Origin: a virus
Direction: 5' to 3' (one strand)
Length of the DNA stretch: 64,000 nucleotides
IMG/VR virus record: IMGVR_UViG_3300022562_001644
Coordinates: 27,959 to 91,958 of that record
Below are positions 39,593 through 57,229 of the stretch, piece after piece (position 1 is the stretch's first letter; every line of letters begins with the position of its first letter). The notes under the pieces were generated by a model. The model did no database searches. It was given only the letters and a program-made list of their open reading frames with translations, and was not told the DNA's origin. A program made the position numbers and the translations under genes.

Positions 39593-40563
39593 TATAGGCT
39601 CGGCGGATTCTTCGACAGGTAGATAAAAGTTGAAAGAATCTTACCAGATAGCTGTTTTTGAAGTTGCTCGATCTGAGTCTGGGTGTTTGCCAGGGGCGGG
39701 GTCGAAGGTCCAAACGCCGTTCCGACCGTCAGTGTTTTGAGTATTTGAAACAGCGTGTTGAAAGCGGAAACGAGTTCATTTCCCAGAACTGCTGGCTCAC
39801 CGGCACCGGCCCCTCCCCACCTATATTCCTTGGCCTCGCCGATCCATCTGCCGTCATCGAAGTACGTTTCTCTTGCCTTGACGACAGCAGTTGCGGCTCC
39901 ACCGGCGACGGTGACCTGGGCGAGCTCGAGCCGGCGTTTGGCTCCACCTTCGAGGTTTCCGTGGTCAATTCGTAGTCGGTAGTGGCTGCCGCCGGCCATG
40001 TCCAGGAAGTCGTCTCGGTGAACGGTCTCGGGCTCCGTTTTCCCGACCTCCTGTCGGCCTCGGGTCGAGGAGTGACCGTCTGCGACCACCTTGTAATTCG
40101 ATGAGCGGAGAGTCATTTGATTGTTCTGAGGGTTGCAAACAATGCTTACCCCAGGACCCGCCTCAACAAACAAGGAGCCCCCCCGCTTCAGAACAAGGGC
40201 TGCGCCTCCGGCGGTTCCGTAGACCTTGTCTCCGGGAGAGACACTGGTAGCCGGGCTGGGTATTTTCGGATCTTCATCCTTTGTTTCATCGAACTCAGGA
40301 GGCCGATGGAATCCAACGATAAAGCAGCCAGCCCCATTTGTGCTCATAAGTGCAACACATGGAGACCCGGCTCGAGGCTTGATAACGTCCCCCGCTCCGC
40401 CAATGTCCGAATCTGCACTCAGCAAATGAGCATCATTTATGATGTACCCATCGGTTGAGCAGAACCGGTACACACCCGGCTTCCCCTCCTGCTCTTCACC
40501 GAGGCAGCCGTAGAGGATTTGCCCCTGAGGAGTTCCGTTTCCTCTCCAAAATCTGTCGTTCAC
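39592..40563 (-). CDS. baseplate spike (gp5/gpV-like, putative)
   Basis: OB-like N-terminus (PRAGSPCV..CFIVGF), beta-strand repeats, C-terminal EPAVLG..GPSTPP. Confidence 0.6.
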   Translation of the reverse strand: MNDRFWRGNGTPQGQILYGCLGEEQEGKPGVYRFCSTDGYIINDAHLLSADSDIGGAGDVIKPRAGSPCVALMSTNGAGCFIVGFHRPPEFDETKDEDPKIPSPATSVSPGDKVYGTAGGAALVLKRGGSLFVEAGPGVSIVCNPQNNQMTLRSSNYKVVADGHSSTRGRQEVGKTEPETVHRDDFLDMAGGSHYRLRIDHGNLEGGAKRRLELAQVTVAGGAATAVVKARETYFDDGRWIGEAKEYRWGGAGAGEPAVLGNELVSAFNTLFQILKTLTVGTAFGPSTPPLANTQTQIEQLQKQLSGKILSTFIYLSKNPPSL

Positions 40564-40598
40564 TTCGCCATCTTACATCAGGGCACTCAAAGTTCCTT

Positions 40599-40616
40599 GG
40601 CATAAGACCAATGAAC
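40599..40616 (+). promoter_or_regulatory. putative phage-RNAP promoter
   Basis: GGCATAAG-ACCAA-TGAAC. Confidence 0.7.
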
Positions 40617-40659
40617 CCGCAGAGCAGGTGGTCTGCTCTAAACATAAGGAGATCAAGAA

Positions 40660-41040
40660 ATGGCAGCTTCAGTAAACAAAATGATCCTCGTCGGCAACCT
40701 CGGCAAAACCCCCGAGCTCAAACACACCAACTCAGGAAAGTCCACCTGCACGTTGGCCGTTGCCACGACGGAGACATGGAAGGACTCAGAGGGGAACAAG
40801 CAATCCCACACGGAGTGGACCGATGTTGTCCTCTGGGGCAAGCAGGCCGAGAACGCCTGTAAATATCTCAGCAAGGGGCGCCCGGTTTTCATCGAAGGTC
40901 GAAAGCGAACCCGTGTCTGGGAAGACAAAGATGGTATTAAGCGATATGCCGTCGAGTGCGTCGCGAACGATGTCCAATACCTTGGCAGCAAGGGCGACAG
41001 CAGTGGCGACAGCAGCAAGGATGAAGATGAGTCGTTCTAA
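40660..41040 (+). CDS. ssb: single-stranded DNA-binding protein
   Basis: SVNKMILVGNLGKTPE..TEW..WGKQAE..YLSKGRPVFIEG; acidic tail ending in F. Confidence 0.95.
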   Translation: MAASVNKMILVGNLGKTPELKHTNSGKSTCTLAVATTETWKDSEGNKQSHTEWTDVVLWGKQAENACKYLSKGRPVFIEGRKRTRVWEDKDGIKRYAVECVANDVQYLGSKGDSSGDSSKDEDESF

Positions 41041-41063
41041 GCCCAAGATAGAAGCCACAGTCA

Positions 41064-41573
41064 ATGAGCGCAATAGCAGGAACCATCGCCTTCTTTGTCA
41101 TCGAAGAAGAGGAGCAACGAATACATGACGAACCAGAACCGGAGGCCGGTGACCTGGTATTGAACTCTGGGTCATTCCTCGTCTGTGAAACTGGCGTAAC
41201 AGCCAAGCTGTCCCCGCCGCTTGGCTTTCTGTCGCGTCACTACGAATGGAAATGGGTGCCTCCGGGAATCGGTGCCCTACGGCTAGCAGTACTGGGAGAG
41301 GGGGACACGCCAAGTACCCTCTACCGGTTCATGAACGAGAGGCAGAAAGATCAGCTAGAGATGGAGCTTGGGAAGGTCTACTGGACCTGCGAGGAACACA
41401 AAGATTTCCTCGAGCACAACTCCACGCTGGCCGATGATGTCTCAAGGATATGGGACTGGATGCCAAGCCTGGTATCCAAGTGTCCATATCAGTCAGTCAT
41501 TCACGACATCAACATGGTTCGAGATATGTCGGACCAGGAGCTAGACAGCTACGTGATGGCAAAATTGCTGTAG
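41064..41573 (+). CDS. hypothetical protein
   Basis: 169-aa ORF downstream of ssb. Confidence 0.65.
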   Translation: MSAIAGTIAFFVIEEEEQRIHDEPEPEAGDLVLNSGSFLVCETGVTAKLSPPLGFLSRHYEWKWVPPGIGALRLAVLGEGDTPSTLYRFMNERQKDQLEMELGKVYWTCEEHKDFLEHNSTLADDVSRIWDWMPSLVSKCPYQSVIHDINMVRDMSDQELDSYVMAKLL

Positions 41574-41582
41574 TATCTGCCC

Positions 41583-42104
41583 ATGGCAGATAGACTGTAT
41601 GACTACAGTGCGCTGACAGACGAACAGCGAAAGCATCTGGAGACTCTCGAGACAGAGATTCAACAGGCGCAAAAGAAGATACTGGACGAAGCTCCAGACC
41701 ATCTTCTGCAGCTCGGAGGAATCCTCCGACGCAGCACCGAAACAGAGAGTCTCGAAGAGTTCCGCAGCTACCTCCAGAAACATTCTATTGATATCGCTGG
41801 CGGCGAACGAGAGCTTGCACTGTTTCGTGACCTCCTCATCATCCGACGCATTGATTTGAAAGATCTAGAACCAGAGGCTAGGCAGCGACTCCGCTTCCAC
41901 ACCCTGATTCAGGAGAATCCAAAGAACATGAGCTCGGACTACAGGGCAGCGATCAGCGAGGGAGATATCCCAAACTGTCGTGACTGTAGATGGTTCGTCA
42001 CTCCACCAAATGACGGACAAGAGGGGTCAGACAAGGCTTGCGTTGAGTTTGGGACCAAGGGCGCCGACCAGGCGTGCTACGGGTTCACTAACAAGCTCAA
42101 CTAA
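41583..42104 (+). CDS. hypothetical protein with C-terminal Cys cluster (leaderless)
   Basis: CRDC..C..C; TAGTAT 6 nt before the ATG. Confidence 0.7.
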   Translation: MADRLYDYSALTDEQRKHLETLETEIQQAQKKILDEAPDHLLQLGGILRRSTETESLEEFRSYLQKHSIDIAGGERELALFRDLLIIRRIDLKDLEPEARQRLRFHTLIQENPKNMSSDYRAAISEGDIPNCRDCRWFVTPPNDGQEGSDKACVEFGTKGADQACYGFTNKLN

Positions 42105-42142
42105 AAAGAACACAACAGCTGAGTGTTCTTTGCCGGTACGGG

Positions 42143-42174
42143 GATGTGGCTCCCCCTGTACCGGTTTTTTTAGC
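42143..42174 (+). terminator. intrinsic terminator
   Basis: CCGGTACGGGG...CCCTGTACCGG followed by T7-AGC; preceded by a second hairpin AAAGAACAC/GTGTTCTTT. Confidence 0.85.
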
Positions 42175-42197
42175 CCCATAATCAGTGGTCGTTTTCG

Positions 42198-42215
42198 GGC
42201 ATAAGAATAGTGAAC
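42198..42215 (+). promoter_or_regulatory. putative phage-RNAP promoter
   Basis: GGCATAAG-AATAG-TGAAC. Confidence 0.7.
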
Positions 42216-42234
42216 CCAAAGAAAGGAGTACTTC

Positions 42235-42549
42235 GTGCTCAAAGACACTGTATTCACAGTCTTCCTGAGTGACCTGTCATTCATCGCAAGAACCTTGTGG
42301 AATGGCCACTTGGTCGCCAAGCATAACCAAAGAGTAATGCGCGGCGACCTGTGGCCGCTCTACAAGATTACGTCGAGCGATGGAGATGCTGTCACCTACA
42401 AAAGACTGTGTCCCCAATGCTGCGAACACGACATCAAACTCAATAAAGACTATTTTGAGTTCATGGCCTCGGATAGAGGCAAACGACGGCACGTCGAAAA
42501 GTGCGACAGATGCGGCAAAGCCGCACCCATGAAGAACGCGTCTAAGTGA
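42235..42549 (+). CDS. small Zn-finger protein
   Basis: CPQC..CDRC; AAGGAG SD before the GTG. Confidence 0.65.
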   Translation: MLKDTVFTVFLSDLSFIARTLWNGHLVAKHNQRVMRGDLWPLYKITSSDGDAVTYKRLCPQCCEHDIKLNKDYFEFMASDRGKRRHVEKCDRCGKAAPMKNASK

Positions 42550-42579
42550 CGCCCGAGCTGGCCGGAGCCAGTATGTAGA

Positions 42580-42636
42580 AGCCCGTACTACGTGCGGGTG
42601 GAAAGAGCCCGTACTACGTGCGGGTTCTTTTTTAGC
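42580..42636 (+). repeat. 20-bp direct repeat of a hairpin, forming a terminator
   Basis: AGCCCGTACTACGTGCGGGT at 42580-42599 and 42606-42625, followed by TCTTTTTTAGC. Confidence 0.85.
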
Positions 42637-43735
42637 CTACGGTCGCAATACGGAACCCGCGCTGTGGGTTGTAGAGCGATTCAAGCAAGTCCTTGTGATA
42701 CATGCGATTGCTCGGCGGCTTGGCCTGGCTTCGACCTCGAGCAGTCGCAGACAGCCTGGAGTTCGGTTTGATTGACTTGGGCTTCGGTGGAGTTCTTCCA
42801 CCGATGTGCCAAGCAGCCGCCGCAATGCTTCGAAGGAGGCCCGGAGCCTTCACTTCATTGCCGGGCATCGCTGCAGCCTGCTTTTCCTCACCCTTCTCCC
42901 TGAGCGTCTTCATGAGGTTCTTTGCGACAAGAGTCGCAAGCACCGTTCCAAAAGCTGGGCCAACATAGGTTGCGAAGGCCGGTCCCATCTCCCTGATGAC
43001 CTTTGCGGCCCCAAGGCCCTGGCTACGAGCTCCCTTAATAGCCTTTGCCGTGGCTCTCGCCTCCTCCGCAATTTCAGGGATGTGCGTTGCGCCAGCCAGG
43101 GCCGGGGCGTAATCGTAGGCAAACTGACCGAGGGTCGAAGTGTCCTCGTCTGGCGGCATGATAGTTCGACCAAGAAGCGCATAGCGACTCATGCTTCCAG
43201 GGAGACCCGATGACATAGCTGCAGCTCTCTGGAGGACCTTTCTTGCCGCATGGCTCCCCCTTACCGGAGAAGCGTGCCCGATCTCATGGAACGCCATCGG
43301 AAGAGAGGTGGTGCTGAGCCCGATATGAGATCCAATTTCTGGAACCTCTTGGCCAATGCTCTTGAGGACACGCTTTCGGACACGATCCAGCAAATCCTCG
43401 TCTGCAATGAAGTATGCGTTTCTGGTCGACCGTGCAATCGGATCCAGTCCTGCAACGATCGGAACAGCCACACCGCTCTCTCGGGCAAATCGCTGTATAG
43501 CTTTAACCTCCTTGCGGGAGAATTCGGCAATATCTTGGAGGAGAGTTCCACCCTCGGCTGCGATCGGTTGTCCGCTAGAAAGAGCCTGGGACAGGAAGCT
43601 CGGTGCACCGCCAGTAATATGACCTGTTACACGAGGGATTCCCTCGAAGATCGCAGCAGCAGCAAGAGCTGGAGACACTCCCAGCTTCTTTTTTAGTTCC
43701 TGGTCGATTTCGCGAGTGTCCTCGTCTCTAGACAT
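42632..43735 (-). CDS. membrane-associated HExxH metallopeptidase-like protein
   Basis: FHEIGHA...EEARAT; similar layout to 23197..24807; EKQA site; TAATG-coupled to the RNAP gene. Confidence 0.65.
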   Translation of the reverse strand: MSRDEDTREIDQELKKKLGVSPALAAAAIFEGIPRVTGHITGGAPSFLSQALSSGQPIAAEGGTLLQDIAEFSRKEVKAIQRFARESGVAVPIVAGLDPIARSTRNAYFIADEDLLDRVRKRVLKSIGQEVPEIGSHIGLSTTSLPMAFHEIGHASPVRGSHAARKVLQRAAAMSSGLPGSMSRYALLGRTIMPPDEDTSTLGQFAYDYAPALAGATHIPEIAEEARATAKAIKGARSQGLGAAKVIREMGPAFATYVGPAFGTVLATLVAKNLMKTLREKGEEKQAAAMPGNEVKAPGLLRSIAAAAWHIGGRTPPKPKSIKPNSRLSATARGRSQAKPPSNRMYHKDLLESLYNPQRGFRIATVG

Positions 43736-46700
43736 TAGTAGACCCCTTCACCTTTTTTGCCGATAGGCTCAACGCCAAACTCGGCTCCATAGGCGAAAGC
43801 TGGAATCGGTGCGTACCCGTGAATATCGCTTTCTTGCATTTTGGTGGCTCCCTGGATCAGGGCATCCTTGATCTCACGATACCCCATCTGGCTCATCCAG
43901 TCTTCACGCAACATGGGAACTCGCTCAATTCCAGCCAGGAACGGGGCATCCTCTATGGGCTTAGGACCAACCTCGACACTGCTTTTACCTGAACGCTCCA
44001 GGATAGTCTTCACCCTGTCGTCGATGACATCACCCTTCTTGGCGCCCGCAACATCCTCGAGGAGCTTGTGGCCGAGGGCCTCGCTTAGCGGCATTTTTCC
44101 AAGCGACCTATTGTTGAAGTCCTGCACAACTGTCCAAGGAGCAATGTCACCAGGCAGAAATTCACTGTCCCCCGGGTCAATCACTTTCGTTGTATTGCCA
44201 ACGGCGCGCATCACCGTCTCCACAGCCCTCCTCCTAATCGGAACTCCCTGGCCCTCATAGGCTTCTTGGATTTGCCCGGAGACATAGTCTTGGGCCTCCA
44301 ACATACCCTTCAGCTTGACGAGCTCCTTTGGCTGAACGAGCCCCTTCGACAAAATGTCTCCTTTATTTACCGATGCACCAACCCGGGCTTTCGCGGAATC
44401 CCACATGTCACCTTCGACGAAATGTGGCTTACCTCCGATGTAGACATCTTTTCCACCCTTCTTGTCCTCAACCTTCTCGATCTTTCCAGACTTCTCAGCG
44501 AGCGTTGCCTTGCCACGCTCGATTTTGTGCATGGTGAATAGTTTGTCGATCTTGTCGTAACCAGTTACGACGCCTCGAGTCCCAGAAATACCACCTTGGT
44601 GGAAGGTTCTCATGGTCATCTGAGTCAAGGGCTCAGAGAGAGCCTGCCCAGACACCGCTCCAACGTTGTCTCCGATGGACGGGCTTTGCCCATACTCATT
44701 TAGTCCATAGCACTTTGAGCAAAGACCCTTCGGTTTACTGCATGTAAGCGGAGACCGGACCTTGACTGAGTCAACCCTGCGATCCCGCAGGGTATTCATA
44801 AGTGAAGAAGTGATTGGGTCACCTGCCCTGGCGAGAACGGTGCTTCCGACTTTGATGTCTTTGGCGAGAAAACGGTCTTCGATATCCTGTGGGCGGAAAG
44901 CACCCTTGCTGTCCTTAAGTTTGATGTCCAACCCATTCTCTGTGCCACAGTCAACGTCGGAGATCACCTCAGTAATCGAGGTCGCCATGATGTTCTTGTT
45001 GAAGGCGCCAGGGTTTGCGGTCTGGAGTTGCTTGTCGACGGCGGCTGCTCGAGCTCCGTAGAGGGTGCTCCAGTAGTCTGAGAAGGGTAGTCCCTCCGCA
45101 AACGACTTTGTCACCGGCACGGGAATTGGGTTTCCCTTATGATCATCAACCATGAACGGGGCCGAAACAATTTGCTTGAGCTGGTTCATGTTTCCGCGCG
45201 CGCCAGACTGAACCATTAGGCGGAAGTTGTTGGGTTGCTGATCAAGCCCTTTCTCGACAGCCTTGTCGAGCTCTTCGTTTGCCCTGGCAACAATCTCGGT
45301 CGCCATCTCTCGACCCTTTGGGGTTTTGAGGTTCAGCTTGCCTATGCGAGCTTCTGTCTCTGAGAAGATTCGGTCTTTTCCTGGGATGTTTGGCAGAAGA
45401 TCTTTGATGCCGACGGTGAAGCCAGTCCTGTAGGTGTGCTCGTCACCCATTTCCTTCAGCTTGTCGACCACTTTACCGTGGTCTCGCGGAAGCTCCTCTG
45501 CAATATCCTTCATGAGACCAGCCAGGCCGTTCTTGTCGAGCGTCTTGCCCCCCCACTTCTTTTGAGCCTCGGGCGGAAGCTCTTTCATTATCTTCTTTTG
45601 CCCCTCCGGATCCTTCGATAGCAAGTAAAGGCCAAGGGCCGCCTCGTTCTGGGGCTGAATCATGATTTGCCCGGTGCCTGGATTGTAGAGGTTGTTGGAG
45701 GGGAGCATTTTCTCCGCCTCCCTTACGGCATCTGTGAGCACCGGAACATGGATCGTCATGGCATCGCCATCGAAGTCTGCGTTGAACCCCTTAACAACCA
45801 GCGGGGGGATCTTGACAGCCTTTCCGTCAGTCAGCCTTGGCTTGAATGCCATGATGCTGAACTTGTGAAGTGACGGAGCCCTGTTCAGCATGACTGGTCT
45901 CTCGGACATTTCTGCTTCAAGCATCGAGCGGGCGATTGGAGTCCTGTTCTTCACCTCGTCGCTCGCTTGTACTGGGTTCATTCCAGACTGGCTGGTAAGT
46001 CGCCTGATGACGAATGGTTCGAACAGGCTCCAAGACATCTCTTCTGGAAGACCTACTTCATCAACCCCAAGCTTTGGCTCCGGGATGATCGTTCCGCGGC
46101 CGACCAGGTTTTGCTGCCGTCGAAGAACTTTGTACTGAAAAAAACCTTCCTTGGCCTTCGGACCCTTGAGCTGCTCAACAATGCCCTTTGGTCGACGTGC
46201 TTCCGGATAGAACGCAATCGGTTTCCCGAGGCCAGCCACCGCCTGAACGCCCTCGTAGAGTTTCTGTCGGAGGTCGGCCTTGATCTCGTCGTCTATAAAC
46301 GGGGTTTCGTTCTGCCACTTGAGCTCATTGCTGATCAGGCCGACGTCGCGGTAGAGCGTGTTGATGCCGGGGTTCGATAGCTTGCCGTCTTCGAGCTCAG
46401 CGATTGGGCGGAAAATCGGGGGAAGAACCGGGATCTTTGTCTGTAGGTAAGCCTCCTCGGGGCGTACCTTGAGCTTCTTGAGGGCGCTGAGGTACTTGAG
46501 CTTCTTGTTGGCCTCATCGAGCTTGCTCTCGCTCTTGGCTGTCTTGGCCTTCTCGGTCCACTGCTTGATCTGGTCATCTACGTCAATGTTCCCAAGGATG
46601 ACCTTGAATGCGTTGCCCCCTGTAACGCCCTGGTCGGCAAACTCTCCGGTGTTTGGATCAACGAATAGTTCTCCACGAACTAGGCCCATGTATTGCTGGT

Positions 46701-49700
46701 TGTTCAGGCTCGTCAGCTTCTTGATTGGATCGGCGAAAACCGGATTGGGTATTGGCTCTGGAAGCTCAATGTGTCCCCAGCGGTCTCCCATCCTGCCACC
46801 GAAGGTGAAGGTGTCCATGAGTCCACCCTTTTCCTCCTTTAGATTCTTTGCCCGAAGGAAGACGGGGTCTTTTACTTCGCCGTTGCTGAGCTTCTCGACC
46901 TCGCGATCCGTCATCGGGCCGAGAACCATCTTCGACCCTCTCTTCTGGACATTGACTCCAGCACCCTTCAGATAGGCCTCAAACTTGCGGTAAGCAAATG
47001 TGGGCTCAGGCTGAGGTTTCAGTAAGCCAGAACTTGCCCCAGCCGACAGCCAATCCCAGAACGGTTGATTCTGGGTTGCCTTGTAAGTGGCCATCTCCCT
47101 GAGATTTGCTCGAGAGCCGTGAGAGAGCATCGAGTAAAAGCTGATAAGGTCGAGGGCCTTGGACCCATCATCTCCACCGCGAAGAGGGGATCGGTTGATG
47201 TCGTATTTACCCTCTGAGCGAGCGGAGAACTGAGAGGTCGCCTGTTTTGACAGCTTCAGGATGTACTGGGGTCCAGTGAGAACCTCGCCGAGAGGTTCTT
47301 TAGAGTGGGGATCAAACAGTGTCTCCGTGTCACTAATACCAGCTTTCTTGAGATCGGCCTCAACCTTGCGAACGTAGTCCTCGCCCGAGAAGTTGTCGAC
47401 GACATAGGGCTTGCCCGTCTTCTCGGCAATTTTCGCTGCAGCAGTCTCAAGAATCTGAGAAGGATTTATACGGCTGACGATGCCGTGCGGATTGAGCAAG
47501 ATATCGACAGGCTTGCCGTCATTGGTGTACGGGGCTTCCCCGTCTGGAATAATCTTCGTGATGATTCCTTTTCCACCGTGTCTGTTGGTTAGCTTGTCGC
47601 CGATCTGGGCAGGCTCTCGAGTCTTGATGTAGACCTTAGCCTTCTTTCCAGAGCGGACAACATCGACAACTTCACCTTCGACGTCTCCCGTCCATGACTC
47701 TTGGAATCCCTTTCTTGAAGGGAAACTGGCCCCCAGCCTCTTCATGATTGTGTAGTCAGGGTCTTGCCGGTTCTCGCGAACGCCAACGAAAATAGGGTCG
47801 CCCTTTTTCAGGACAGTCCCCTTCTTCACAACGCCGTCATTGTCCAAGGTGGACTGTTGCTCGAGGGTGAGATCACCCTTCCAGGCCACGCGCTTTTTCA
47901 GAGACAGTTCGGTCGTGTTGTCTGCTTGGGCGCCATACTCATGCATGTGCTCGCTCGTTAGCTTTTGAGCCGCTGACTCAGTAATGACGATCCCGTCTTC
48001 GAAGTTATAACCTTTCCATGGAATGTAGGCCGCCTTGAGATTCGTTCCCAACGCAAGGGTTCCTCCATCCGTGAAATTGGAGTCGGCGATGACATCTCCA
48101 GCCGCAACCTTGTCACCGACGCTCACCCGCGGGCTTGCATGCAGGAATGACTTATGGTTAAGCGGCATATTGTTGTAGAGAGGCTGCTCTACTTCCCCAT
48201 CTTTCGTTTCTATGACGACCTTGCTTTTGGATACACTTTTGACGACGCCGTCGTCCTGGGCTCTCAATGAAAATCCAGAGCCAATCGTGTTCTCTATTGT
48301 CGTCTTTCCGATTTTGACCTGAACAAAAGGAGCTTCTCTGCCTGACAGCGGAATCGCCTGCTCTGACATCTTTGTGGCCATCTGAGCTCGCACACCCTGA
48401 GCCGATGGCAGAAACGGTATGGTATTTGTTGCAATCGAAAAAGCCTGTTTCGATGACCGGAGAACAGCATCAACTTCCCTCTGGTCAACCAGCTGATGCT
48501 CGCCATCAACAATAGCCTTGACCTTCTTGCCTTTGAACTTTCCATCTTGAAACTGATCAGGAAGGGCAACAACCATCTGCCTCATGTCACTGGGTGACAC
48601 AGCCCTGGTTGTTTTCTTTCGGACGTCGTAGACCTGGGTGAGGAGATCACCCCCCTTCTTCCTGGCCCCCAGTGGAAGATTCATGACAATGCCGATCTTC
48701 TCTGAGTCAGGCGTGTGAATCGGATCGATGTATCCAAGGTGAGATGGATGCACGGAGCGCTCCTCAGCCCTGACCATCATGGGGTCCTTGATTCCGCCCT
48801 CGCCCATGACAGTAATCTTCGACATACCGTTTAGCATGTGAAGTGGGTTTGTCTGATCGGGGGTATTCGACAGAGTCGACTGTGTGAAGAATGATGTCAG
48901 GGCAGGGGTGAACTGACTGGCACTAATCAGCTCATCAACACGCTTAGGTGGAGCTTTCTGGTTGTTCATCTTCCGATGAATCTTTTTTCGGAATTCATTG
49001 ATCTTCTGAGTCAACTCGCCGTTCGGCTTGAAAAACCGTTCGCGCATGACATCGGAGAGGGAAAGGACCTTCTTGTATTCAAGAGCCTGCCTGTCATCTG
49101 GCCCACGCTCACCGGCCACGGCTCGCAGAAGCTCCTTGCTGCCAACAAGGACGGCCTCGGGGGAGAGCTTACTGAACTCTTTGCCGATGGTGTTCTTAGT
49201 AACCTCTGGGCGCAACTCGTGCTCTTCGAAGTACTCACGGATCGCCTTCGCTGCATCGTCTGCTGACTCATACTTGGTTGAGGTGAAATGTTCAGCGGCC
49301 TTTAGAACGGATTGCTCAGCCTTCTTGGGTGAGACGGCTTTGTTGACTGCAAGGATCCTGTCGCCCCACGCCTTGGCAAGCTGACCATCTGTCATTCCCA
49401 TGCGAGAAAGAATCGGGTATAGCGGAACCCCGCTTGTATCGGCTGCTCCGCGCATAAGCCGAAATGTCTCACTCTTCGGGTCAAACCGAACATCGAATGC
49501 TCGACCGGCGATGTTGACCTCCGTCTTGAGGCTCCGGTTCTTCATCTCGGTGATGTAGATCCCAGGCTTCCTGCGAAGCTGGTTGTTCACCTGATAGTGT
49601 TTTCCATCGACAATGAAGCTGCCTAGGTCCGTGCTCTTAGGAAGGGTTGCGAGCTTAATCTTGCTGGATGACGAGATTACCTTTCCGCTATTCCGGTCTA

Positions 49701-49926
49701 CGAGCTCGACGGTTCCGTAGACTGGAACGCCCCAGGTCCTGTCCTTTCTCACAGCCTCTTTTTGAGACTGCCAATCCGATGTGTCTTTGTTGTCTTCGAC
49801 CCAAATATCTTTGGCTCGAAGTTGCAGCCCCGTGGCCGCGGCCTGCACATCCAGCGCCTTGGAGAAGGCTGTCTTCACATCCTTCTTCACTATTTCAAAC
49901 TGGTCTTGGTAGTCGAACGTTTCCAT
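43735..49926 (-). CDS. rpoBC: DNA-directed RNA polymerase, fused beta-beta' single chain
   Basis: beta motifs GYNFED, GDKLTNRHGGKG, NPHGIVSRIN; beta' motifs NRAPSLH, NADFDGD (45763-45783), CSKCYG, EPLTQMTMRTFH; all in one 2063-aa ORF. Confidence 0.95.
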   Translation of the reverse strand: METFDYQDQFEIVKKDVKTAFSKALDVQAAATGLQLRAKDIWVEDNKDTSDWQSQKEAVRKDRTWGVPVYGTVELVDRNSGKVISSSSKIKLATLPKSTDLGSFIVDGKHYQVNNQLRRKPGIYITEMKNRSLKTEVNIAGRAFDVRFDPKSETFRLMRGAADTSGVPLYPILSRMGMTDGQLAKAWGDRILAVNKAVSPKKAEQSVLKAAEHFTSTKYESADDAAKAIREYFEEHELRPEVTKNTIGKEFSKLSPEAVLVGSKELLRAVAGERGPDDRQALEYKKVLSLSDVMRERFFKPNGELTQKINEFRKKIHRKMNNQKAPPKRVDELISASQFTPALTSFFTQSTLSNTPDQTNPLHMLNGMSKITVMGEGGIKDPMMVRAEERSVHPSHLGYIDPIHTPDSEKIGIVMNLPLGARKKGGDLLTQVYDVRKKTTRAVSPSDMRQMVVALPDQFQDGKFKGKKVKAIVDGEHQLVDQREVDAVLRSSKQAFSIATNTIPFLPSAQGVRAQMATKMSEQAIPLSGREAPFVQVKIGKTTIENTIGSGFSLRAQDDGVVKSVSKSKVVIETKDGEVEQPLYNNMPLNHKSFLHASPRVSVGDKVAAGDVIADSNFTDGGTLALGTNLKAAYIPWKGYNFEDGIVITESAAQKLTSEHMHEYGAQADNTTELSLKKRVAWKGDLTLEQQSTLDNDGVVKKGTVLKKGDPIFVGVRENRQDPDYTIMKRLGASFPSRKGFQESWTGDVEGEVVDVVRSGKKAKVYIKTREPAQIGDKLTNRHGGKGIITKIIPDGEAPYTNDGKPVDILLNPHGIVSRINPSQILETAAAKIAEKTGKPYVVDNFSGEDYVRKVEADLKKAGISDTETLFDPHSKEPLGEVLTGPQYILKLSKQATSQFSARSEGKYDINRSPLRGGDDGSKALDLISFYSMLSHGSRANLREMATYKATQNQPFWDWLSAGASSGLLKPQPEPTFAYRKFEAYLKGAGVNVQKRGSKMVLGPMTDREVEKLSNGEVKDPVFLRAKNLKEEKGGLMDTFTFGGRMGDRWGHIELPEPIPNPVFADPIKKLTSLNNQQYMGLVRGELFVDPNTGEFADQGVTGGNAFKVILGNIDVDDQIKQWTEKAKTAKSESKLDEANKKLKYLSALKKLKVRPEEAYLQTKIPVLPPIFRPIAELEDGKLSNPGINTLYRDVGLISNELKWQNETPFIDDEIKADLRQKLYEGVQAVAGLGKPIAFYPEARRPKGIVEQLKGPKAKEGFFQYKVLRRQQNLVGRGTIIPEPKLGVDEVGLPEEMSWSLFEPFVIRRLTSQSGMNPVQASDEVKNRTPIARSMLEAEMSERPVMLNRAPSLHKFSIMAFKPRLTDGKAVKIPPLVVKGFNADFDGDAMTIHVPVLTDAVREAEKMLPSNNLYNPGTGQIMIQPQNEAALGLYLLSKDPEGQKKIMKELPPEAQKKWGGKTLDKNGLAGLMKDIAEELPRDHGKVVDKLKEMGDEHTYRTGFTVGIKDLLPNIPGKDRIFSETEARIGKLNLKTPKGREMATEIVARANEELDKAVEKGLDQQPNNFRLMVQSGARGNMNQLKQIVSAPFMVDDHKGNPIPVPVTKSFAEGLPFSDYWSTLYGARAAAVDKQLQTANPGAFNKNIMATSITEVISDVDCGTENGLDIKLKDSKGAFRPQDIEDRFLAKDIKVGSTVLARAGDPITSSLMNTLRDRRVDSVKVRSPLTCSKPKGLCSKCYGLNEYGQSPSIGDNVGAVSGQALSEPLTQMTMRTFHQGGISGTRGVVTGYDKIDKLFTMHKIERGKATLAEKSGKIEKVEDKKGGKDVYIGGKPHFVEGDMWDSAKARVGASVNKGDILSKGLVQPKELVKLKGMLEAQDYVSGQIQEAYEGQGVPIRRRAVETVMRAVGNTTKVIDPGDSEFLPGDIAPWTVVQDFNNRSLGKMPLSEALGHKLLEDVAGAKKGDVIDDRVKTILERSGKSSVEVGPKPIEDAPFLAGIERVPMLREDWMSQMGYREIKDALIQGATKMQESDIHGYAPIPAFAYGAEFGVEPIGKKGEGVY

Positions 49927-49945
49927 GCGTCACGAGCTCTTTTCT

Positions 49946-49963
49946 GGCACAAGGTTTTTGAAC
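49946..49963 (+). promoter_or_regulatory. putative phage-RNAP promoter
   Basis: GGCACAAG-GTTTT-TGAAC. Confidence 0.6.
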
Positions 49964-50072
49964 GAGGAAGCCCACGCCCGCAAAGGAGATTATCACCTGG
50001 GAAAACCCAACAATAACGTCTTTGTAATAGCTTCTATCCAAGAAAGCGAAAAAGCACTAGAGGAGGACCTGA

Positions 50073-50375
50073 ATGGTCGCAGCAATCGGCGCAGTGATCG
50101 CCGCAAACGAGTACATCGAGCAGGAGATGGCAATCTCCAGAGCTCAAGAAAATAAAGAGGCAGAAGACTCGCCTCGCACAAGGAGAATCCGCCACAGCCT
50201 TATTTCGGACGCGCTCGAGCTCGGCGTCCGAATGGCAGCCCTGTCGTTCGTGGTCTTCAGCGGACTTACCATTGGACTCAAGATGTTTGGCCTAGCCGCC
50301 AGCGCCATGGGATTTCTGGCCACGAAGGTCTTGGCCATCGATGCTGGGGCGATGCCACAGGGAGCGCCTTCGTAA
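50073..50375 (+). CDS. small membrane protein
   Basis: GAGGAGG SD; hydrophobic C-terminal half. Confidence 0.7.
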   Translation: MVAAIGAVIAANEYIEQEMAISRAQENKEAEDSPRTRRIRHSLISDALELGVRMAALSFVVFSGLTIGLKMFGLAASAMGFLATKVLAIDAGAMPQGAPS

Positions 50376-50403
50376 AGAAAAATCAACAAGGAGAAGCTAC
50401 CCA

Positions 50404-50874
50404 ATGGTGGGAGCAGTAATAGGCGCACTCGCCTACTTTGATGAAGTAGAGCCAGAGTTGTTCGCTGTACCAGACCGTCCAAAACAGCAGGGGCCGCGAA
50501 TGGTTGACCTGAGAAGGCTTGCGGGATCCGTTGTTCCCGCCCACGGCCTGATCATCAATAGCCGTGGAATATCAGCCGGAGGGTTTGGCGGTCGAGTGTT
50601 TATGTGGATGAGGAAGCTGTTGGGTGCAGTTTCCGTAGCAGGCATGATCGCCCTAGGTCTGTTTGTCTACACAGAGTTCACCCACGCCTGGCAAAAGAGG
50701 GGGTTGCCTACAATACCAATCTCGGCCCTGTCTGCGCTCGACGAAGCAGCGCAACAGGGCAGGTCGTCAGGTTCAGCCACGACCACTGGTCGGGGCGATG
50801 TGTACCAGCCAGGAGTAAGGCGCGAGTCTGGGGCTCAGAGAAACCTGAGTCTCCTTAATGACTACATTGGTTAG
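50404..50874 (+). CDS. membrane protein
   Basis: AAGGAG upstream of ATG 50404; one TM helix. Confidence 0.65.
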   Translation: MVGAVIGALAYFDEVEPELFAVPDRPKQQGPRMVDLRRLAGSVVPAHGLIINSRGISAGGFGGRVFMWMRKLLGAVSVAGMIALGLFVYTEFTHAWQKRGLPTIPISALSALDEAAQQGRSSGSATTTGRGDVYQPGVRRESGAQRNLSLLNDYIG

Positions 50875-51311
50875 TCAATCAGCTCGCTAACCAGGAATCC
50901 TGCTAGCACAGATGTCGAGACAGCGGCTGCGGTCCAGGCCAGGGGAGATCCCCACCTGGGCCGTACCCGCTCGTCTTGGTATTTTTTATCCAAGGCAATC
51001 AGGTCGGTTCGCAACTTGTCGTTGCTTGCAATGAGTAGATCGTTGCTGGCCGAAATGGCTTCCGCCTGCCTGAGCAGGTCTTTTTTTTGCTCTTCAAGCA
51101 GCGTGACTTTTTGGTCTTGGAGCTTGAGCTGGACGCGGGCAGATACGAGCTCGGCATCGACCTTTAGAACAAGCTTCCACTCGCCAAGCGTGTAGCCGCA
51201 AAAATCTCCGGCCAGCTTGCACTTAGGAACAATCTTGGGCTCGTAGCCGTCAGCGAACGCCGGCGTCCCGCCAAGAACGAATGCTATCGATAGCACGCAA
51301 ATCAGCCTCAT
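50871..51311 (-). CDS. spanin-like exported coiled-coil protein (putative)
   Basis: Signal peptide ending AFA, coiled coil, C-terminal TM; overlaps the upstream gene by 62 nt. Confidence 0.5.
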   Translation of the reverse strand: MRLICVLSIAFVLGGTPAFADGYEPKIVPKCKLAGDFCGYTLGEWKLVLKVDAELVSARVQLKLQDQKVTLLEEQKKDLLRQAEAISASNDLLIASNDKLRTDLIALDKKYQDERVRPRWGSPLAWTAAAVSTSVLAGFLVSELID

Positions 51312-51693
51312 AGCGCTTCTCCTCTGCCCTCATGTCGGCCTCGAGGACACGGATCTCATTCTCTGCCTTGTCGATCCGCTTCGCCGCCTCAAGCACCACC
51401 ACCAGGTTCTTGCTGAGCTTCTTGTCAAGCTCAGCCTTCTCCTTGAAGATCTTTGCCTTATTCTTCTCGTGACGAAGCTTGGCCAGTTCTTTGTTCCTGC
51501 GCCAAGAAATCCACGACCAAACGGCCGTGCCGATAAGCACGACCGCAATGATCACGACCACGCCGACCCAAGACTTACCGCCCCCCGACTTCTTCTTGTT
51601 GTCGTTGACGATTCCCTTGAGCTGGTCGAGGAGACGGTGGGGGTCGAAGGGTGGTTTCTTTAGCTCCTTCGACCCTTGTTTCTCGTCAGCCAT
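51250..51693 (-). CDS. i-spanin-like protein (putative)
   Basis: Single TM followed by a long coiled coil. Confidence 0.5.
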   Translation of the reverse strand: MADEKQGSKELKKPPFDPHRLLDQLKGIVNDNKKKSGGGKSWVGVVVIIAVVLIGTAVWSWISWRRNKELAKLRHEKNKAKIFKEKAELDKKLSKNLVVVLEAAKRIDKAENEIRVLEADMRAEEKRYEADLRAIDSIRSWRDAGVR

Positions 51694-52374
51694 CTAGGGG
51701 TTCAGCGGAAGCGAGTCGTCCACGTCTAGGCGGCGTGAGAAAAGATGAGCCTCGATAAGGCCCTCGAGCTTCTCTCGTCCAATATCTGGTAGACCCGAGG
51801 CCTTACCAATATCCAATGCCCAGTTCGCTGCAACCTCGAGGATTTCAGGACCCGGAATCTTCTTGTCATCGGTCATGTCACGCATCTTGTTGCGAGCCCA
51901 TTCACCGCCACGCTGTGCAGCCTTGCCAGCCAGCTTCGACCAGGCGTCGAGCTGCTTATCGCCCACGTCGATCTTGTACTTCTTCCTAACCCAAGTAAGC
52001 AGAAGTCCCACAAGGCCCGTGACCAAAGCCCCGAATGCTGGAACGAGAATGGCCATGAGCTCGTCGCTGAGTCGCTGGAGGGCAGTGCCTGCAGCAGGTG
52101 AGGAATCGTCAGCTTTTGGTTCGGGGGCTGCCTCGGGATCCGGATCGGGCTCTGGTTCTGGCGCTGGCGCTGCCGAGGGCTCTGGAGTTGGAGCCGGCGC
52201 GGGATCCACTGCCTCAACAGCATCGACGCCAGCATCGCTTTGCGCGAACGCGACGAACGGAACGGCTGCGAGGCCGAGGCTGAATACGAGTACGAGTACG
52301 CTAGCCAGCCGAGCGTTCACTCGACCAGTCTTTTTGTGCTTCAAAAATTTCATCTTTGTTGTCTCCCTTGGCAC
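51694..52374 (-). CDS. holin-like membrane protein (putative)
   Basis: Signal/TM segment, Pro-rich linker, second TM, then a helical domain ending LEGLIEA; start uncertain. Confidence 0.45.
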   Translation of the reverse strand: MPRETTKMKFLKHKKTGRVNARLASVLVLVFSLGLAAVPFVAFAQSDAGVDAVEAVDPAPAPTPEPSAAPAPEPEPDPDPEAAPEPKADDSSPAAGTALQRLSDELMAILVPAFGALVTGLVGLLLTWVRKKYKIDVGDKQLDAWSKLAGKAAQRGGEWARNKMRDMTDDKKIPGPEILEVAANWALDIGKASGLPDIGREKLEGLIEAHLFSRRLDVDDSLPLNP

Positions 52375-52648
52375 GCTTAGGCGCCTTTTCCCAGTATTGG
52401 ACCACGAGAATAACTTCCTCGGAAGTCGTCACGACTAGGTCCTGCCCTGTACCTTCGCGAACAGTATTCTTTCGTTCGTACTCGCGCATCATCTCAATCT
52501 TGATGCCTGAGGAAGCGTCATTTGCTCGATTGCGAAGATCTGCATATCGCTCAAGGTCCGCATCTTCGAACATCGAAAATTTCTCGATGCGAAAATTACC
52601 TAGATTGCTGTTACTGCTACCGAATTTTACCTCGGTGACCTTAGCCAT
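52301..52648 (-). CDS. hypothetical protein
   Basis: TGATG-coupled to the portal gene. Confidence 0.65.
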   Translation of the reverse strand: MAKVTEVKFGSSNSNLGNFRIEKFSMFEDADLERYADLRNRANDASSGIKIEMMREYERKNTVREGTGQDLVVTTSEEVILVVQYWEKAPKRAKGDNKDEIFEAQKDWSSERSAG

Positions 52649-54696
52649 CAGATGCTTCCATCCTCGCGCCGCGGGGGCGCAACCTGCGGGTTCGGACGCA
52701 TCTTGTCTGCTGCGTCTGCAGCTGTGCCGCCCGGACCCATCTGTGTGAGTAGCTGCTCAACCAGGCGAGCCATGTTCGGCATTCTCTGGCGGAGCTCAGC
52801 GAGAACCTGATCCCTTTGAGCCTGCGGCATCTGAGCCAGCCGATTAGCCCACTGCTTGGCGATCTTGGAGGCATCCATTTCAACTACTTGGCCCCCACCA
52901 CCGGCAGACTGGCCTGTTGCCCCCACTTCCTGAGCCTGGACCTGCGCCGCTTGCCCCTGCGCCGCTTGAGCGGCCATCTGCTGGTCCTCGGCGAGCTCAG
53001 CCGACGTTGCCGGCGACGCCCCTTCCTGGGGCTGCTGTTGGCCGCCTTGGCCCTCCTGGGGAGGCTGGCCCTGCTGGGGCGCCTGCTGGGGCTGGCCTCC
53101 CTCCTGCGCAGCCTGCTGCGCCGAGGCCTGATCCTGCCCCTGGCCCTCAAGTCCAGGCTGCCCTCCGGACATAGCGCCCTGCGCCTCCTGGAAGGCCTCT
53201 TGCGCCCTGGCCTGGTACTTGGCCGACAGGATCTGTGCCTCGCCCTGCGCCTCCGTCTGGGCTTTCTGGACCAGCGCCTGAATTCGATTCCGCTGTTCGG
53301 TCTCTTTCTCGATCATCTTGAGTTCATCGTCGTAGTCGAACCCGAGCTCGGTAAGCATCGTGTGATCGGAGATCTTGTTGGCCGCGTTCAGCTGGATGAC
53401 GATCTGCTTTCGCTGAATATCGTCGGCCATCTTGAACTCGGTGAAGCCGATGTCCACATCGGGAAGACCGAGGTACAGCTGGATGCGGTTCTTCGCCCAG
53501 TTAACGAACCGGAGAAGAAGCCGCCGATACATGAGGAAGTGGTTCTCCAGGGTCCTGAGGCTGACGCTGGAGCCAGACCAAGAAAGGCCGCCGAAGACGA
53601 ATTCAATGGGTACGCCCATGCCACCCGTGATCTCCTTGTTCGTGACTTCGATTTCTGGGCCAAGAAGAAGAGCTCGGCCGTCGCCACCCAGCCTCTCGAA
53701 TCCCAAGGGCACCGACACGACCGAGATGTAGTTGGGGTCGATACGCCATTTGCGGATCTCCGACTGCACCGTGCCTTGCCAGCTGGACAGGTTGACGTGC
53801 TGGTAGGGGTCTTGCTGTGCGTTTGCCTGCGGGAAGATGAACTCAAGCGGCATAATGCGCTGGAGAGCGATCGCCTCCTGGGCTCGCCGAAGAACGTAGA
53901 GGTAGAACATGCGGCCCATCGAGTGAATGATGAGCGGCTTGCCCCAGCCCATGTCCTGCTCTGCGAGCGTTGGCCTCTTGAAGTGGAAGAGGTTTTGGTC
54001 GGAGAGCGCAATGTCACGACGCTTTTTGAGCGCCATGAGAAACACTTCGGGGATGTCGACCAAGACCTCACGAACGCCACCCTGTATCGCCTTGCGAATT
54101 TTGTTTGGAATCTTGTAGCGGTACTTCGACTTGCCGGTAATCGGGTTGTAGTGAATGTCGATATTTTTGGGATCCCATCGAACAAAGTTAATCCCCGTTT
54201 GGTCCCTGATGGGCCTGTCGACGATTTTCCCAACGACCTGTTCTGTGCAGCTTGGGCACTGGAGGTGAAATTCGAAGTTGGTGAACTTGTACTTCAGTCG
54301 CTCGTCCGCCAGCTTGTGAAGCGAATCGCACTTTGGGCAGCGAATCCATCGGACGAATGGAAGGTTAATACTGACAAAAGCATTGCCGTAACAGAAATAG
54401 TCGAGGCCGATCTCAATGAGGAACGGCTTCAGGTTCAGCGTGTCCTCGAGGACGTTCTTCCATCCTTCGCGGACGTGCTTCTCTTCGGCGTTGTAGATGA
54501 AGTTCGTGACTGGATACTCGGCGATCTTTGTGACCACCGAACCAATCATCGGGTCCTTGTAGAAGAAGTACTGACACCACCGAAACAGTTCCTTGACTGT
54601 CGGCGGCATGTACGTCTGCGCGATATCGAAGAAGGGGGACGGATAAACCGTTCCCCTCCGTCGATCACGGGCAGTCGTTATGCTTCCTCCGGCCAT
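52648..54696 (-). CDS. portal protein (putative)
   Basis: GLDYFCYGNAFV, FVRWDPKNI, GWGKPLI, GMGVPIEFVFGG; 682 aa with a Q-rich tail. Confidence 0.8.
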   Translation of the reverse strand: MAGGSITTARDRRRGTVYPSPFFDIAQTYMPPTVKELFRWCQYFFYKDPMIGSVVTKIAEYPVTNFIYNAEEKHVREGWKNVLEDTLNLKPFLIEIGLDYFCYGNAFVSINLPFVRWIRCPKCDSLHKLADERLKYKFTNFEFHLQCPSCTEQVVGKIVDRPIRDQTGINFVRWDPKNIDIHYNPITGKSKYRYKIPNKIRKAIQGGVREVLVDIPEVFLMALKKRRDIALSDQNLFHFKRPTLAEQDMGWGKPLIIHSMGRMFYLYVLRRAQEAIALQRIMPLEFIFPQANAQQDPYQHVNLSSWQGTVQSEIRKWRIDPNYISVVSVPLGFERLGGDGRALLLGPEIEVTNKEITGGMGVPIEFVFGGLSWSGSSVSLRTLENHFLMYRRLLLRFVNWAKNRIQLYLGLPDVDIGFTEFKMADDIQRKQIVIQLNAANKISDHTMLTELGFDYDDELKMIEKETEQRNRIQALVQKAQTEAQGEAQILSAKYQARAQEAFQEAQGAMSGGQPGLEGQGQDQASAQQAAQEGGQPQQAPQQGQPPQEGQGGQQQPQEGASPATSAELAEDQQMAAQAAQGQAAQVQAQEVGATGQSAGGGGQVVEMDASKIAKQWANRLAQMPQAQRDQVLAELRQRMPNMARLVEQLLTQMGPGGTAADAADKMRPNPQVAPPRREDGSI

Positions 54697-54700
54697 CTAT

Positions 54701-56011: not shown

Positions 56012-56012
56012 A

Positions 56013-56201
56013 TTAGCCTCCGTCGGCCCACCAGGGGCCACGCCCATTGCCGCGGGCTGGATCGTACTCAGATTCTACGACTTCGTCGCATTCCCTGGCG
56101 ATATCGTTGTACATGCCTTCGATATATTCGCGGCGGTAATCCGCAATCTCGTCGGCAATTTTCTGCAGAGCGTCCATGTCCTTGTTTTCAGGCCCTATCA
56201 T
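56013..56201 (-). CDS. small acidic protein
   Basis: ATGA-coupled; QKIA site. Confidence 0.55.
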   Translation of the reverse strand: MIGPENKDMDALQKIADEIADYRREYIEGMYNDIARECDEVVESEYDPARGNGRGPWWADGG

Positions 56202-57229
56202 GGCACAGGCGGGCTGGTGGTTGAAGAGCTTGCCGGCGCACCCGGCACGCGCCCGCGCTCAGCCTCACGTTCCCTGAGATACGTCTGGACCACAAAGAGC
56301 TTGAGGATATGGATATCCCGCGGGTCTTCCTCGTTCCATTCGATTTCCTCCGGGTTCTCACCCTTAACGCGCTCCCAGGTCATCTGTACATCGTTCTTCA
56401 GCCCAACCAGGTGCTCACGGTTGCGCTCGAGCACCTCCTGGGCGCCGTCGAACCATTCCTCGGGTGCCCACACCCATCCATGGTCATCCAGTATTGCCGC
56501 CATGTATGCCTTAACTTCGTGAGCAAACTCGTCATCTGGTCGGATTCCTCGCATAACCTGAACAGCGAATGCAAGCTGCATGGGTGTCATGGGCTGAAAA
56601 GATCCGATGATGGGAATGATGTCATTCCAGGCTAATCCGCAGTCTTCGAAAACATCCCAGTCGATCCATGGAATGTCTGTCGTAGCAGCCAGCCTGAGCG
56701 CCATGATCTTATTTCGCACAAGCTCGCCCACGGGACCGAAGCTTCTTCTTAGCGCCCACCAGAGCGTATCCGACTCCCAGTCGGCCCAGTCCGCCTTGTA
56801 ACGCATCGTCAAGACCTCCAGGAGCTGGAGCGGGTGAGCTCGCTTGTCAGTGAACAGCTTGCCGTGGGTCAGCCTCGACGGGAGCTCTGGCTCGACTGCC
56901 CCCTCTTCCGGCTCTGGCTCTTCATCGTTTCTCTGAAACGAATCGATCTGGACTGCCTCACCAGCCTCTCCCGGAGGCTGCTCCTGTACCTGATCCTGGT
57001 CAGAGCCCTCGTCCTCTGACGCCTCTTGTTCTGGCGGGCTCGCTTGATCCTCTTGCCCTTGGGCAGCCTGCTCCTCGAGCTGGTCGAGAATGCTCGGTGA
57101 AACCGAAGGGACGCCAAGAGCGTCAGCCACACCCGGATCAAGGTCGACCGCAACTTTCGTTCGCCCACTGTCATCCAGCAGAGCTCCAAGGAAACCCTGC
57201 TCTGCCTCATTGAGAGTATGTCTGCTCAC
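56198..57229 (-). CDS. hypothetical head-associated protein
   Basis: TKVA site, acidic linker, Trp-rich globular domain. Confidence 0.7.
   Translation of the reverse strand: MSRHTLNEAEQGFLGALLDDSGRTKVAVDLDPGVADALGVPSVSPSILDQLEEQAAQGQEDQASPPEQEASEDEGSDQDQVQEQPPGEAGEAVQIDSFQRNDEEPEPEEGAVEPELPSRLTHGKLFTDKRAHPLQLLEVLTMRYKADWADWESDTLWWALRRSFGPVGELVRNKIMALRLAATTDIPWIDWDVFEDCGLAWNDIIPIIGSFQPMTPMQLAFAVQVMRGIRPDDEFAHEVKAYMAAILDDHGWVWAPEEWFDGAQEVLERNREHLVGLKNDVQMTWERVKGENPEEIEWNEEDPRDIHILKLFVVQTYLREREAERGRVPGAPASSSTTSPPVP

Follow-up and report, generated by a model that had tools for sequence, protein, structure and literature searches.

The virion RNA polymerase (vRNAP) of phage N4 is a T7-like single-subunit enzyme, and the RNA polymerases (RNAPs) of N4-like phages are packed in the head and injected. 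The crAss enzyme is a two-barrel protein too divergent for cellular beta/beta' profiles. Jumbo phages such as phiKZ, AR9 and PBS2 encode relatives of beta and beta' without alpha or omega; one of their RNAP sets is carried in the virion for early transcription, and infection can resist rifampicin (PMC7598289). These jumbo-phage enzymes consist of four or five polypeptides, are very divergent and lack a recognisable sigma factor; each genome encodes two sets. Here we describe the gene of an RNAP, the 2063-residue protein P0001, in a stretch of 64,000 nucleotides (the window) which corresponds to bases 27959-91958 of the linear 91,958-bp IMG/VR record IMGVR_UViG_3300022562_001644. The record is a contig of an uncultured tailed phage, is ~51% complete (CheckV) and stems from a sample that was probably a marine sediment metagenome. 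All coordinates refer to the window unless stated otherwise. The gene joins bacterial-type beta and beta' in a single open reading frame (ORF) and, judged from its sequence, very probably encodes a functional single-chain phage RNAP core.

In contrast to the jumbo-phage enzymes, P0001 is a single chain near bacterial RNAP, is present once per genome and has relatives that encode sigma70-family proteins. It resembles the N4 and crAss enzymes in being one very large polypeptide; those enzymes are head-packed and injected, whereas P0001 only may be. It differs from both in being a plain bacterial-type beta-beta' protein. According to PMC7483510, which cites Zakharova 1999 and Lane & Darst 2010, fused rpoBC genes, in which the C-terminus of beta runs in frame into the N-terminus of beta', occur in Helicobacteraceae and Wolbachia. 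Those fusions yield cellular enzymes of full size, which have alpha, omega and host sigma. In contrast, P0001 is about 300-700 residues smaller, is devoid of the beta' zinc domain and falls into a clade of its own. We infer that the phage fusion is independent of the Helicobacter/Wolbachia fusion.

A further group, termed mReC, comprises uncultured tailed phages with beta and beta' recognisable by cellular profiles (Weinheimer & Aylward 2020, PMC7481178). The tables of that study contain beta (about 1000-1400 residues) and beta' (about 900-1370 residues) as separate proteins, eight mReC contigs carry T4-type capsid proteins (PF07068), and the text applies the word "fused" to crAssphage only (PMC7481178). 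The mReC contig L036 matched the beta part of P0001 only, with 27% identity, and its relatives L035, L037, L038 and L040 obtained lower scores on fused-family profiles than bacteria. Membership of P0001 in mReC was rejected on account of the fused gene and of its position in a different tree group from the relatives of the mReC contig. A search of the literature for fused beta-beta' RNAPs of phages retrieved no description, which is no proof that none exists elsewhere. P0001 adds a member to a large family which the databases contain but which is undescribed in the literature found.

The Fused Beta-Beta' Polypeptide

The RNAP ORF is located on the minus strand, starts with ATG, spans 2063 codons and contains no internal stop. 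The gene and the elements of its product were located as follows.

43735-49926, minus strand: fused beta-beta' RNAP gene (P0001, 2063 residues); ORF, Pfam matches, PDB matches and AlphaFold halves
46945-49926, minus strand: beta module, residues 1-994; alignment to E. coli rpoB
46909-46971, minus strand: beta to beta' junction, residues 986-1006; alignment, junction spacing and model
43738-46944, minus strand: beta' module, residues 995-2063; alignment to E. coli rpoC
45763-45783, minus strand: catalytic NADFDGD, residues 1382-1388; motif in alignment
44710-44949, minus strand: second zinc site, C1660, C1729, C1736 and C1739; aligned with E. coli beta' C814, C888, C895 and C898
44524-44664, minus strand: trigger loop, residues ~1755-1801, without the SI3 insert; MRTFHQGG conserved

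Pfam searches recognised Rpb2_3 and Rpb2_6 in the beta part at residues 357-917 (PF04565, 3.7e-11; PF00562, 1.2e-52) and Rpb1_1, Rpb1_2, Rpb1_4 and Rpb1_5 in the beta' part at residues 1115-1921. In the latter, PF00623, PF04998 and PF05000 passed the cut-offs; PF04997 reached 35 bits, which is under its cut-off of 39.7. The initial annotation of this DNA had described one 2063-residue ORF with beta motifs followed by beta' motifs without a stop, and the intact ORF with Pfam domains in that order bears this out. Comparison with the sequences of solved structures in the PDB yielded matches of 4.7e-85 to bacterial beta and 7.4e-121 to bacterial beta'. Archaeal and eukaryotic homologues of beta matched far more weakly, with values of about 1e-23 to 1e-18. 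Consequently, the enzyme is of the bacterial type.

Structure prediction, which had been proposed as a check, was carried out with AlphaFold in two overlapping halves (residues 1-1200 and 980-2063). They match bacterial beta and beta' chains, respectively, and so confirm both folds. The beta model has a predicted local distance difference test score (pLDDT) of 79 and template modelling (TM) scores of 0.64-0.74 to bacterial beta chains. Both double-psi barrels, the bridge helix, the trigger loop, the lid, the clamp helices and the rudder region are kept. Among these elements, the clamp helices, which are a docking site for sigma, were also modelled with confidence.

The beta active-site motifs GYNFED and RHGGKG are readable in the translation and in the alignment. 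The NADFDGD motif and the trigger loop that had been recognised initially are indeed present, the former at residues 1382-1388 and the latter with its MRTFHQGG sequence. D1384, F1385, D1386, G1387 and D1388 are invariant among 13 family members. In the model, the trigger loop appears as a low-confidence tip between two helices. The four cysteines of the second zinc site are the only ones in the 2063-residue protein. All four are replaced in some homologues, for example in P0014, in which this site would be free of zinc and of cysteine.

Mutations that confer rifampicin resistance are well established and provide the background for reading the corresponding pocket of P0001. Several residues of this pocket are altered (H526 to G, S531 to T, R529 to K, Q513 to N and F514 to T), and because of these changes the enzyme is predicted to be rifampicin-insensitive.

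The junction and the deletions were mapped in an alignment of P0001, 17 homologues and the E. coli rpoB and rpoC products (locus L041). The end of E. coli beta and the start of beta' fall at residues ~994-996 of P0001. No linker separates the two; all that is lost at the join is the final 4 residues of E. coli beta and the initial 14 of beta'. The junction peptide named in the initial annotation corresponds to residues 988-1003 (window 46918-46965), and the claim that beta' follows beta without a stop at ~46920-46965 is upheld by the aligned E. coli boundary. Among the 87 homologues that fit a loose pattern, 85 have exactly the same distance from the last beta motif to the first beta' motif. 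Moreover, both AlphaFold halves model the junction as a beta-hairpin, within a block whose pLDDT is about 70-91. Judged by this spacing and by the models, the junction is a selected, structured join rather than a read-through accident.

With 2063 residues, P0001 is 686 residues shorter than E. coli beta plus beta' (1342 + 1407 = 2749 residues), in agreement with the earlier estimate of several hundred. The bacterial beta plus beta' pairs sampled comprise 2365-2748 residues and the intein-free members of the phage family 1912-2104. P0001 lies about 300 residues below the smallest sampled bacterial pair. Relative to E. coli, 745 residues are absent and 59 are extra, with 28% identity across 2004 aligned positions. 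The absent segments of beta are residues 1-31, parts of SI1 (229-254 and 278-312), residues 379-419, SI2 (939-1047) and residues 1125-1178. Those of beta' are residues 66-97 of the zinc-binding domain, 124-148, 519-574 and SI3 (947-1118). For the N-terminal zinc domain of beta' (four Cys, E. coli 70-88) no counterpart was detected in any aligned family member.

Family and Phylogeny

A homologue search against 5.8 billion proteins returned 3547 matches, and the best 119 others were examined. These best 119 of the 3547 show 42-82% identity, and all of them (119/119) hold the Pfam domains of beta together with those of beta' in a single chain. They originate from JGI, ENA, Logan and NCBI assemblies and reside on contigs of up to about 186 kb. 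Uninterrupted fusions of this kind make up over 100 protein clusters whose source assemblies are independent of one another, and hundreds of related phages have the design in common. Family members of 2400-2950 residues with inteins or LAGLIDADG domains (PF14890, PF14528) were also observed, among them P0023, P0037, P0055, P0057, P0060, P0098 and P0120. Since many members hold such domains, the RNAP gene is a frequent target of mobile elements.

Among deposited phages, only the Vibrio phages D181, D148 and D69 (187 kb) and the Salmonella phage Arash (181 kb) matched P0001 over most of its length. In prokaryote assemblies the fused form was encountered on four long contigs (L062-L065, 114-204 kb). 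Their bins are labelled Dependentiae, Bacteroidales, Aenigmatarchaeota and "uncultured bacterium", and they are probably phage contigs mis-binned into cellular genomes. The remaining matches in prokaryote assemblies are ordinary bacterial rpoBC with 25-30% identity.

A phylogenetic tree of 48 taxa was calculated with FastTree (LG+gamma) from three conserved blocks with 1089 columns. The sampling of bacteria is narrow and leaves out archaea, Helicobacter and Wolbachia; the alignment was guided by the profile of the fused family, and the substitution model was not site-heterogeneous. In this tree the fused family is monophyletic with a Shimodaira-Hasegawa-like support of 0.947, and Arash and Vibrio phage D69 are nested within it. 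The 17 bacteria form a separate clade (support 0.997), and a third group unites L035, L037, L038 and L040, phages whose subunits are separate. The phylogeny that had been suggested as a check thus places the fused family in its own clade, apart from bacteria and from separate-subunit phages. Identity in the conserved blocks amounts to 33% with bacterial RNAP versus 30% with the other multisubunit RNAPs of phages.

Arash and the Vibrio phages D69, D148 and D181 belong to the same family and clade as P0001, possess the same fused junction and have a portal gene just upstream. The portal, the large terminase and one structural protein are also common to these phages and the window. Like the phage described here, they are of the myovirus type, with genomes of roughly 180 kb. 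Their RNAP is only about 30-35% identical to P0001. In these phages the gene is re-cut inside beta' at a position equivalent to residue ~1445, whereas it encodes one unbroken chain here. Because both Arash and D69 are nested inside the fused clade, their split state is secondary. The genes inserted at residue ~1445 include a homing endonuclease in D181 and D148. They take up about 4.7 kb within the RNAP region of Arash (L002, 13824-24992) and about 0.6 kb within that of D69 (L001, 7881-14932), and the cut point coincides with a 56-residue deletion of the family relative to E. coli. A 208-kb IMG/VR contig of the Arash/Vibrio subclade (L026) has the beta block and each of the two beta' blocks in an ORF and a frame of its own. 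Either the junction was re-split there or the assembly contains frameshifts. The two Arash RNAP pieces, gp206 and gp216, are annotated as beta and beta' subunits without mention of a fusion (PMC10585845). For the Arash sigma factors gp10 and gp196, no counterpart was detected in the half genome studied here.

Possible Partners, Candidate Promoters and Possible Virion Packaging

The alpha domain (PF01193) gave no match in the 92-kb contig or in five large relatives; 14 of 14 control genomes matched. Sigma region 2 was found nowhere in the whole 92-kb contig. The initial annotation had reported that the window contains no alpha or full sigma gene, and this extends to the entire contig. Because the contig represents ~51% of the genome, the absence of these genes says little about the whole phage. 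When Arash gp10, Arash gp196 and the sigma factor of the relative G002 were searched for in the contig, only a region-4 mini-protein was matched.

3159-3614, plus strand: 151-residue Cys-rich protein with a sigma region 4.2-like helix-turn-helix; PF04545 (8.9e-08), phrog_351 sigma factor

This mini-protein has a Cys-rich, zinc-ribbon-like N-terminus and no region 2. The closest relative, G001, encodes a 152-residue orthologue (L050 1303-1761). It may act as a transcription accessory, as a switch between promoter classes or as a sigma mimic.

The five large relatives, one of which has terminal repeats and is rated 100% complete, were searched for possible partners. They contain one RNAP copy each. 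Three of the five (G002, G003 and G004) carry full sigma70-family genes, and both records of at least 90% completeness are among these three. BLAST comparison revealed two kinds of sigma factor in the relatives, one like Arash gp10 and one like gp196, and a gp10-type sigma lies at the contig end of G001. By analogy with these relatives, the enzyme probably works with phage sigma factors.

The sequence GGCAYAAG occurs in the contig in 12 copies on the plus strand and in none on the minus strand. Nine copies are intergenic, and intergenic DNA makes up roughly 10% of the contig. In the window, 7 copies were counted versus 3.3 ± 1.8 expected, both strands combined. They are intergenic at 862, 27565, 40599, 42198, 49946 and 58462 and genic at 57450, all on the plus strand, with five more upstream in the contig. 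A Gibbs sampler applied to upstream regions of the plus strand recovered the same motif. When 27 copies were pooled, a CAC element emerged 12 bases ahead of CATAAG, and a TGAA behind it. Two elements lie directly upstream of the RNAP gene.

49929-49963, plus strand: bipartite motif GTCAC, 12 bases, GGCACAAG, 5 bases, TGAA; starts 3 bp from the RNAP ATG and points away from it
49987-49995, minus strand: candidate -10-like box TGATAATCT for the RNAP gene, uncertain; partly conserved in L005 only

Each locus of the relatives L005-L009 contains 3-5 motif copies, none of which shares the strand of the RNAP gene. One of these copies is located about 20 bp from the RNAP start codon, as is the copy at 49946 here. 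CAC-N12-GGCAYAAG is likely a phage-specific, sigma-style bipartite promoter of non-structural genes.

The TGATAATCT box fell below the threshold of a scan for sigma70 promoters. In that scan, consensus promoters were compared with shuffled sequence; we observed 1 versus 7.1 ± 2.2 expected in the contig at 1-20000 (L060) and 3 versus 8.5 ± 3.0 expected in the window at 40000-59999. The scan is crude, and the consensus of the host may differ. Host-type early promoters are unsupported, the sigma70 consensus being depleted in both scanned regions. A shared late promoter of the minus strand was also considered and discarded; just two TGATA-type boxes, upstream of 49926 and of 33439, are alike, which is too few.

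Several observations favour packaging of the RNAP in the virion. One is gene position: the RNAP is encoded on the structural strand, and when 38 loci were searched for comparison (36 viral contigs, Arash and Vibrio phage D69), 26 of them had a portal gene just upstream of the RNAP gene in the same orientation. The presence of a single RNAP per genome in complete relatives and the depletion of sigma70-type promoters were also counted in its favour. Arash particles have been analysed by mass spectrometry after sucrose gradient and pelleting, and no protein was detected more than gp206, for which 128 unique peptides and 3516 spectra were counted (PMC10585845). In the same preparation gp216 was represented by 1210 spectra and sigma gp10 by 467; gp196 is not listed (PMC10585845). 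By our own arithmetic, gp206, gp216 and gp10 correspond to 2.3, 2.0 and 2.0 spectra per residue versus 1.5 for the portal. Given the gene position and the Arash proteome, the chances that the RNAP of this phage is packaged in the virion are about even.

The best explanation, which taken as a whole has a probability of roughly 0.6, starts from P0001 as the functional core of a bacterial-type RNAP that the phage itself supplies, with all catalytic parts in one polypeptide. Since no alpha gene is present in the contig or in complete relatives, the covalent tether, perhaps together with unknown phage proteins, would replace the role of the alpha dimer in assembly. Promoter choice would be set by phage-encoded sigma-family proteins of the gp10- and gp196-like kinds. 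The enzyme would read phage promoters such as CAC-N12-GGCAYAAG, which head the plus strand units. At about even odds, it would be made alongside the virion proteins, loaded into the head, possibly with a gp10-type sigma, and injected. The injected enzyme would then start phage transcription without the host polymerase. A more far-reaching version assumes a self-sufficient core without alpha or omega, which is loaded into the capsid with a gp10-type sigma as a holoenzyme, uses its own promoters, and is switched between promoter classes by a second sigma and, here, by the region-4 mini-protein. We regard this version as tentative and, taken as a whole, rather doubtful.

Several points weigh against the explanation that we prefer. 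The flap-tip helix, on which sigma region 4 docks, is poorly conserved in the family. No gp10- or gp196-type sigma was found in the 92-kb half genome, so that the partnership with sigma is assigned by analogy, and the enzyme may use host alpha, omega or sigma. The reading of GGCAYAAG as a promoter is drawn from its position, strand and conservation. The experimental record of the family consists of one shotgun proteome, that of Arash, a distant relative with about 30-35% identity to P0001. The Arash preparation contained 116 proteins, including ribonucleotide reductase alpha with 663 and NAMPT with 423 spectra, and its authors offer carry-over as an alternative (PMC10585845). The high Arash counts may accordingly reflect abundant late proteins that were carried along. 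Finally, the RNAP gene belongs to a two-gene unit between plus strand islands, which makes its "late" timing no more than tentative.

In one alternative, the host RNAP reads the first genes and the fused enzyme is made in the cell for middle and late transcription. T7 RNAP and the phiKZ-like non-virion RNAPs are models for such a takeover inside the cell. This alternative would fit the lack of direct support for packaging in this phage, the over-reporting Arash proteome with its 116 proteins and the -10-like box in the separate leader of the RNAP unit. In addition, a 230-kDa enzyme needs unfolding or threading in order to pass through a myovirus tail. However, complete relatives encode only one RNAP set, sigma70 consensus promoters are depleted in the presumed early arm, and the RNAP gene stands beside the portal on the structural strand across the family. 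In Arash, moreover, no other protein came near the RNAP in unique peptides (128), and a sigma factor of the structural module was detected with it. We therefore consider an enzyme confined to the cell possible, at clearly less than even chances.

A hybrid enzyme, in which the fused chain assembles with a host alpha dimer and omega and perhaps with host sigma, appears improbable. The lack of a phage alpha gene and the retained clamp helices agree with it, as does the greater closeness to bacterial RNAP than to the other multisubunit RNAPs of phages (33% versus 30%, with higher profile scores). Yet the relatives encode sigma factors of their own, and multisubunit RNAPs of jumbo phages work without alpha (PMC7598289). 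Hosts range from Salmonella and Vibrio to organisms of marine sediment, so that the alpha contacts would have to co-evolve with each of them. A mere artefact, whether through mis-assembly or a frameshift that linked rpoB to rpoC or through cellular sequence attached to a phage contig, is extremely improbable. It is true that in the probable source run and three other runs, compared over 45900-47900, the contigs leave 46838-47105 uncovered. Nevertheless, independent assemblies yield the same architecture in over 100 protein clusters and cultured phages have it as well, the length of the junction is fixed, and phage structural genes lie on both sides of the gene. The identity of about 28% to E. 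coli (2004 residues) and of about 33% to bacterial enzymes in the conserved blocks also argues against cellular DNA. Thus, a single-chain RNAP core of the phage's own remains the explanation that we favour.

Gene Context and Significance

The minus strand is the structural strand and carries the genes for the major head protein, the tail sheath, a protease-like protein, the large terminase, the portal and the tail fibre. The initial assignment of the RNAP gene to this strand is correct, as all of these genes have the same orientation. Units of the plus strand are non-structural and code for SSB (40660-41040) and for clamp-like and exonuclease-like proteins. The immediate neighbourhood of the RNAP gene comprises the following features.

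52648-54696, minus strand: portal gene, conserved neighbour upstream of the RNAP gene; PHROG portal matches, 30% identity to Arash portal gp204
43733-43737, minus strand: TAATG, in which the RNAP stop codon overlaps the next start codon; read from the sequence
42632-43735, minus strand: downstream 367-residue protein P0121 with a HEIGH motif; translation

The TAATG overlap substantiates the coupling of the RNAP gene to the downstream gene that had been claimed. Together, the RNAP gene and the gene of P0121 form a two-gene unit of the minus strand which is flanked by two plus strand islands. No match to P0121 was found in Pfam or PHROG. The protein shows a weak structural likeness to Zn_peptidase_2 (PF04298), and HEIGH is a motif of the zinc-peptidase type. 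It is retained behind the RNAP gene only in the closest subclade, L005-L009. The K-x-A triplets behind its earlier label as a K-x-A-bearing protein are no more frequent than by chance, with 2 versus 3.1 ± 1.6 expected from its composition. Small islands of the plus strand (40660-42549, 50073-50375, 26884-28619 and 58541-58786) break up the structural arm of the minus strand. Each of these is headed by GGCAYAAG, and the canonical SSB gene at 40660-41040 lies in one of them. No tRNA genes were found in this DNA.

The family is widespread in sediments, waters and guts and has cultured members in Arash and the Vibrio phages. Its genes are labelled "beta", "beta prime" or hypothetical, and its contigs are sometimes binned in metagenome-assembled genomes of bacteria or archaea. 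If active alone, P0001 would be a single chain and, among natural RNA polymerase cores of the bacterial type, the smallest. It would then offer a test of whether the alpha dimer is needed beyond assembly and of the roles of the beta' zinc domain and the inserts. A possible use would be as a compact, sigma-programmable enzyme for structural, cell-free and synthetic work. If the version with a self-sufficient, packaged holoenzyme were true, a family of ~180-kb phages would be independent of the host RNAP from the first minute. If active alone, the fused enzyme would represent a third route to host-independent transcription, beside the N4-type single-subunit and the phiKZ-type split enzymes.

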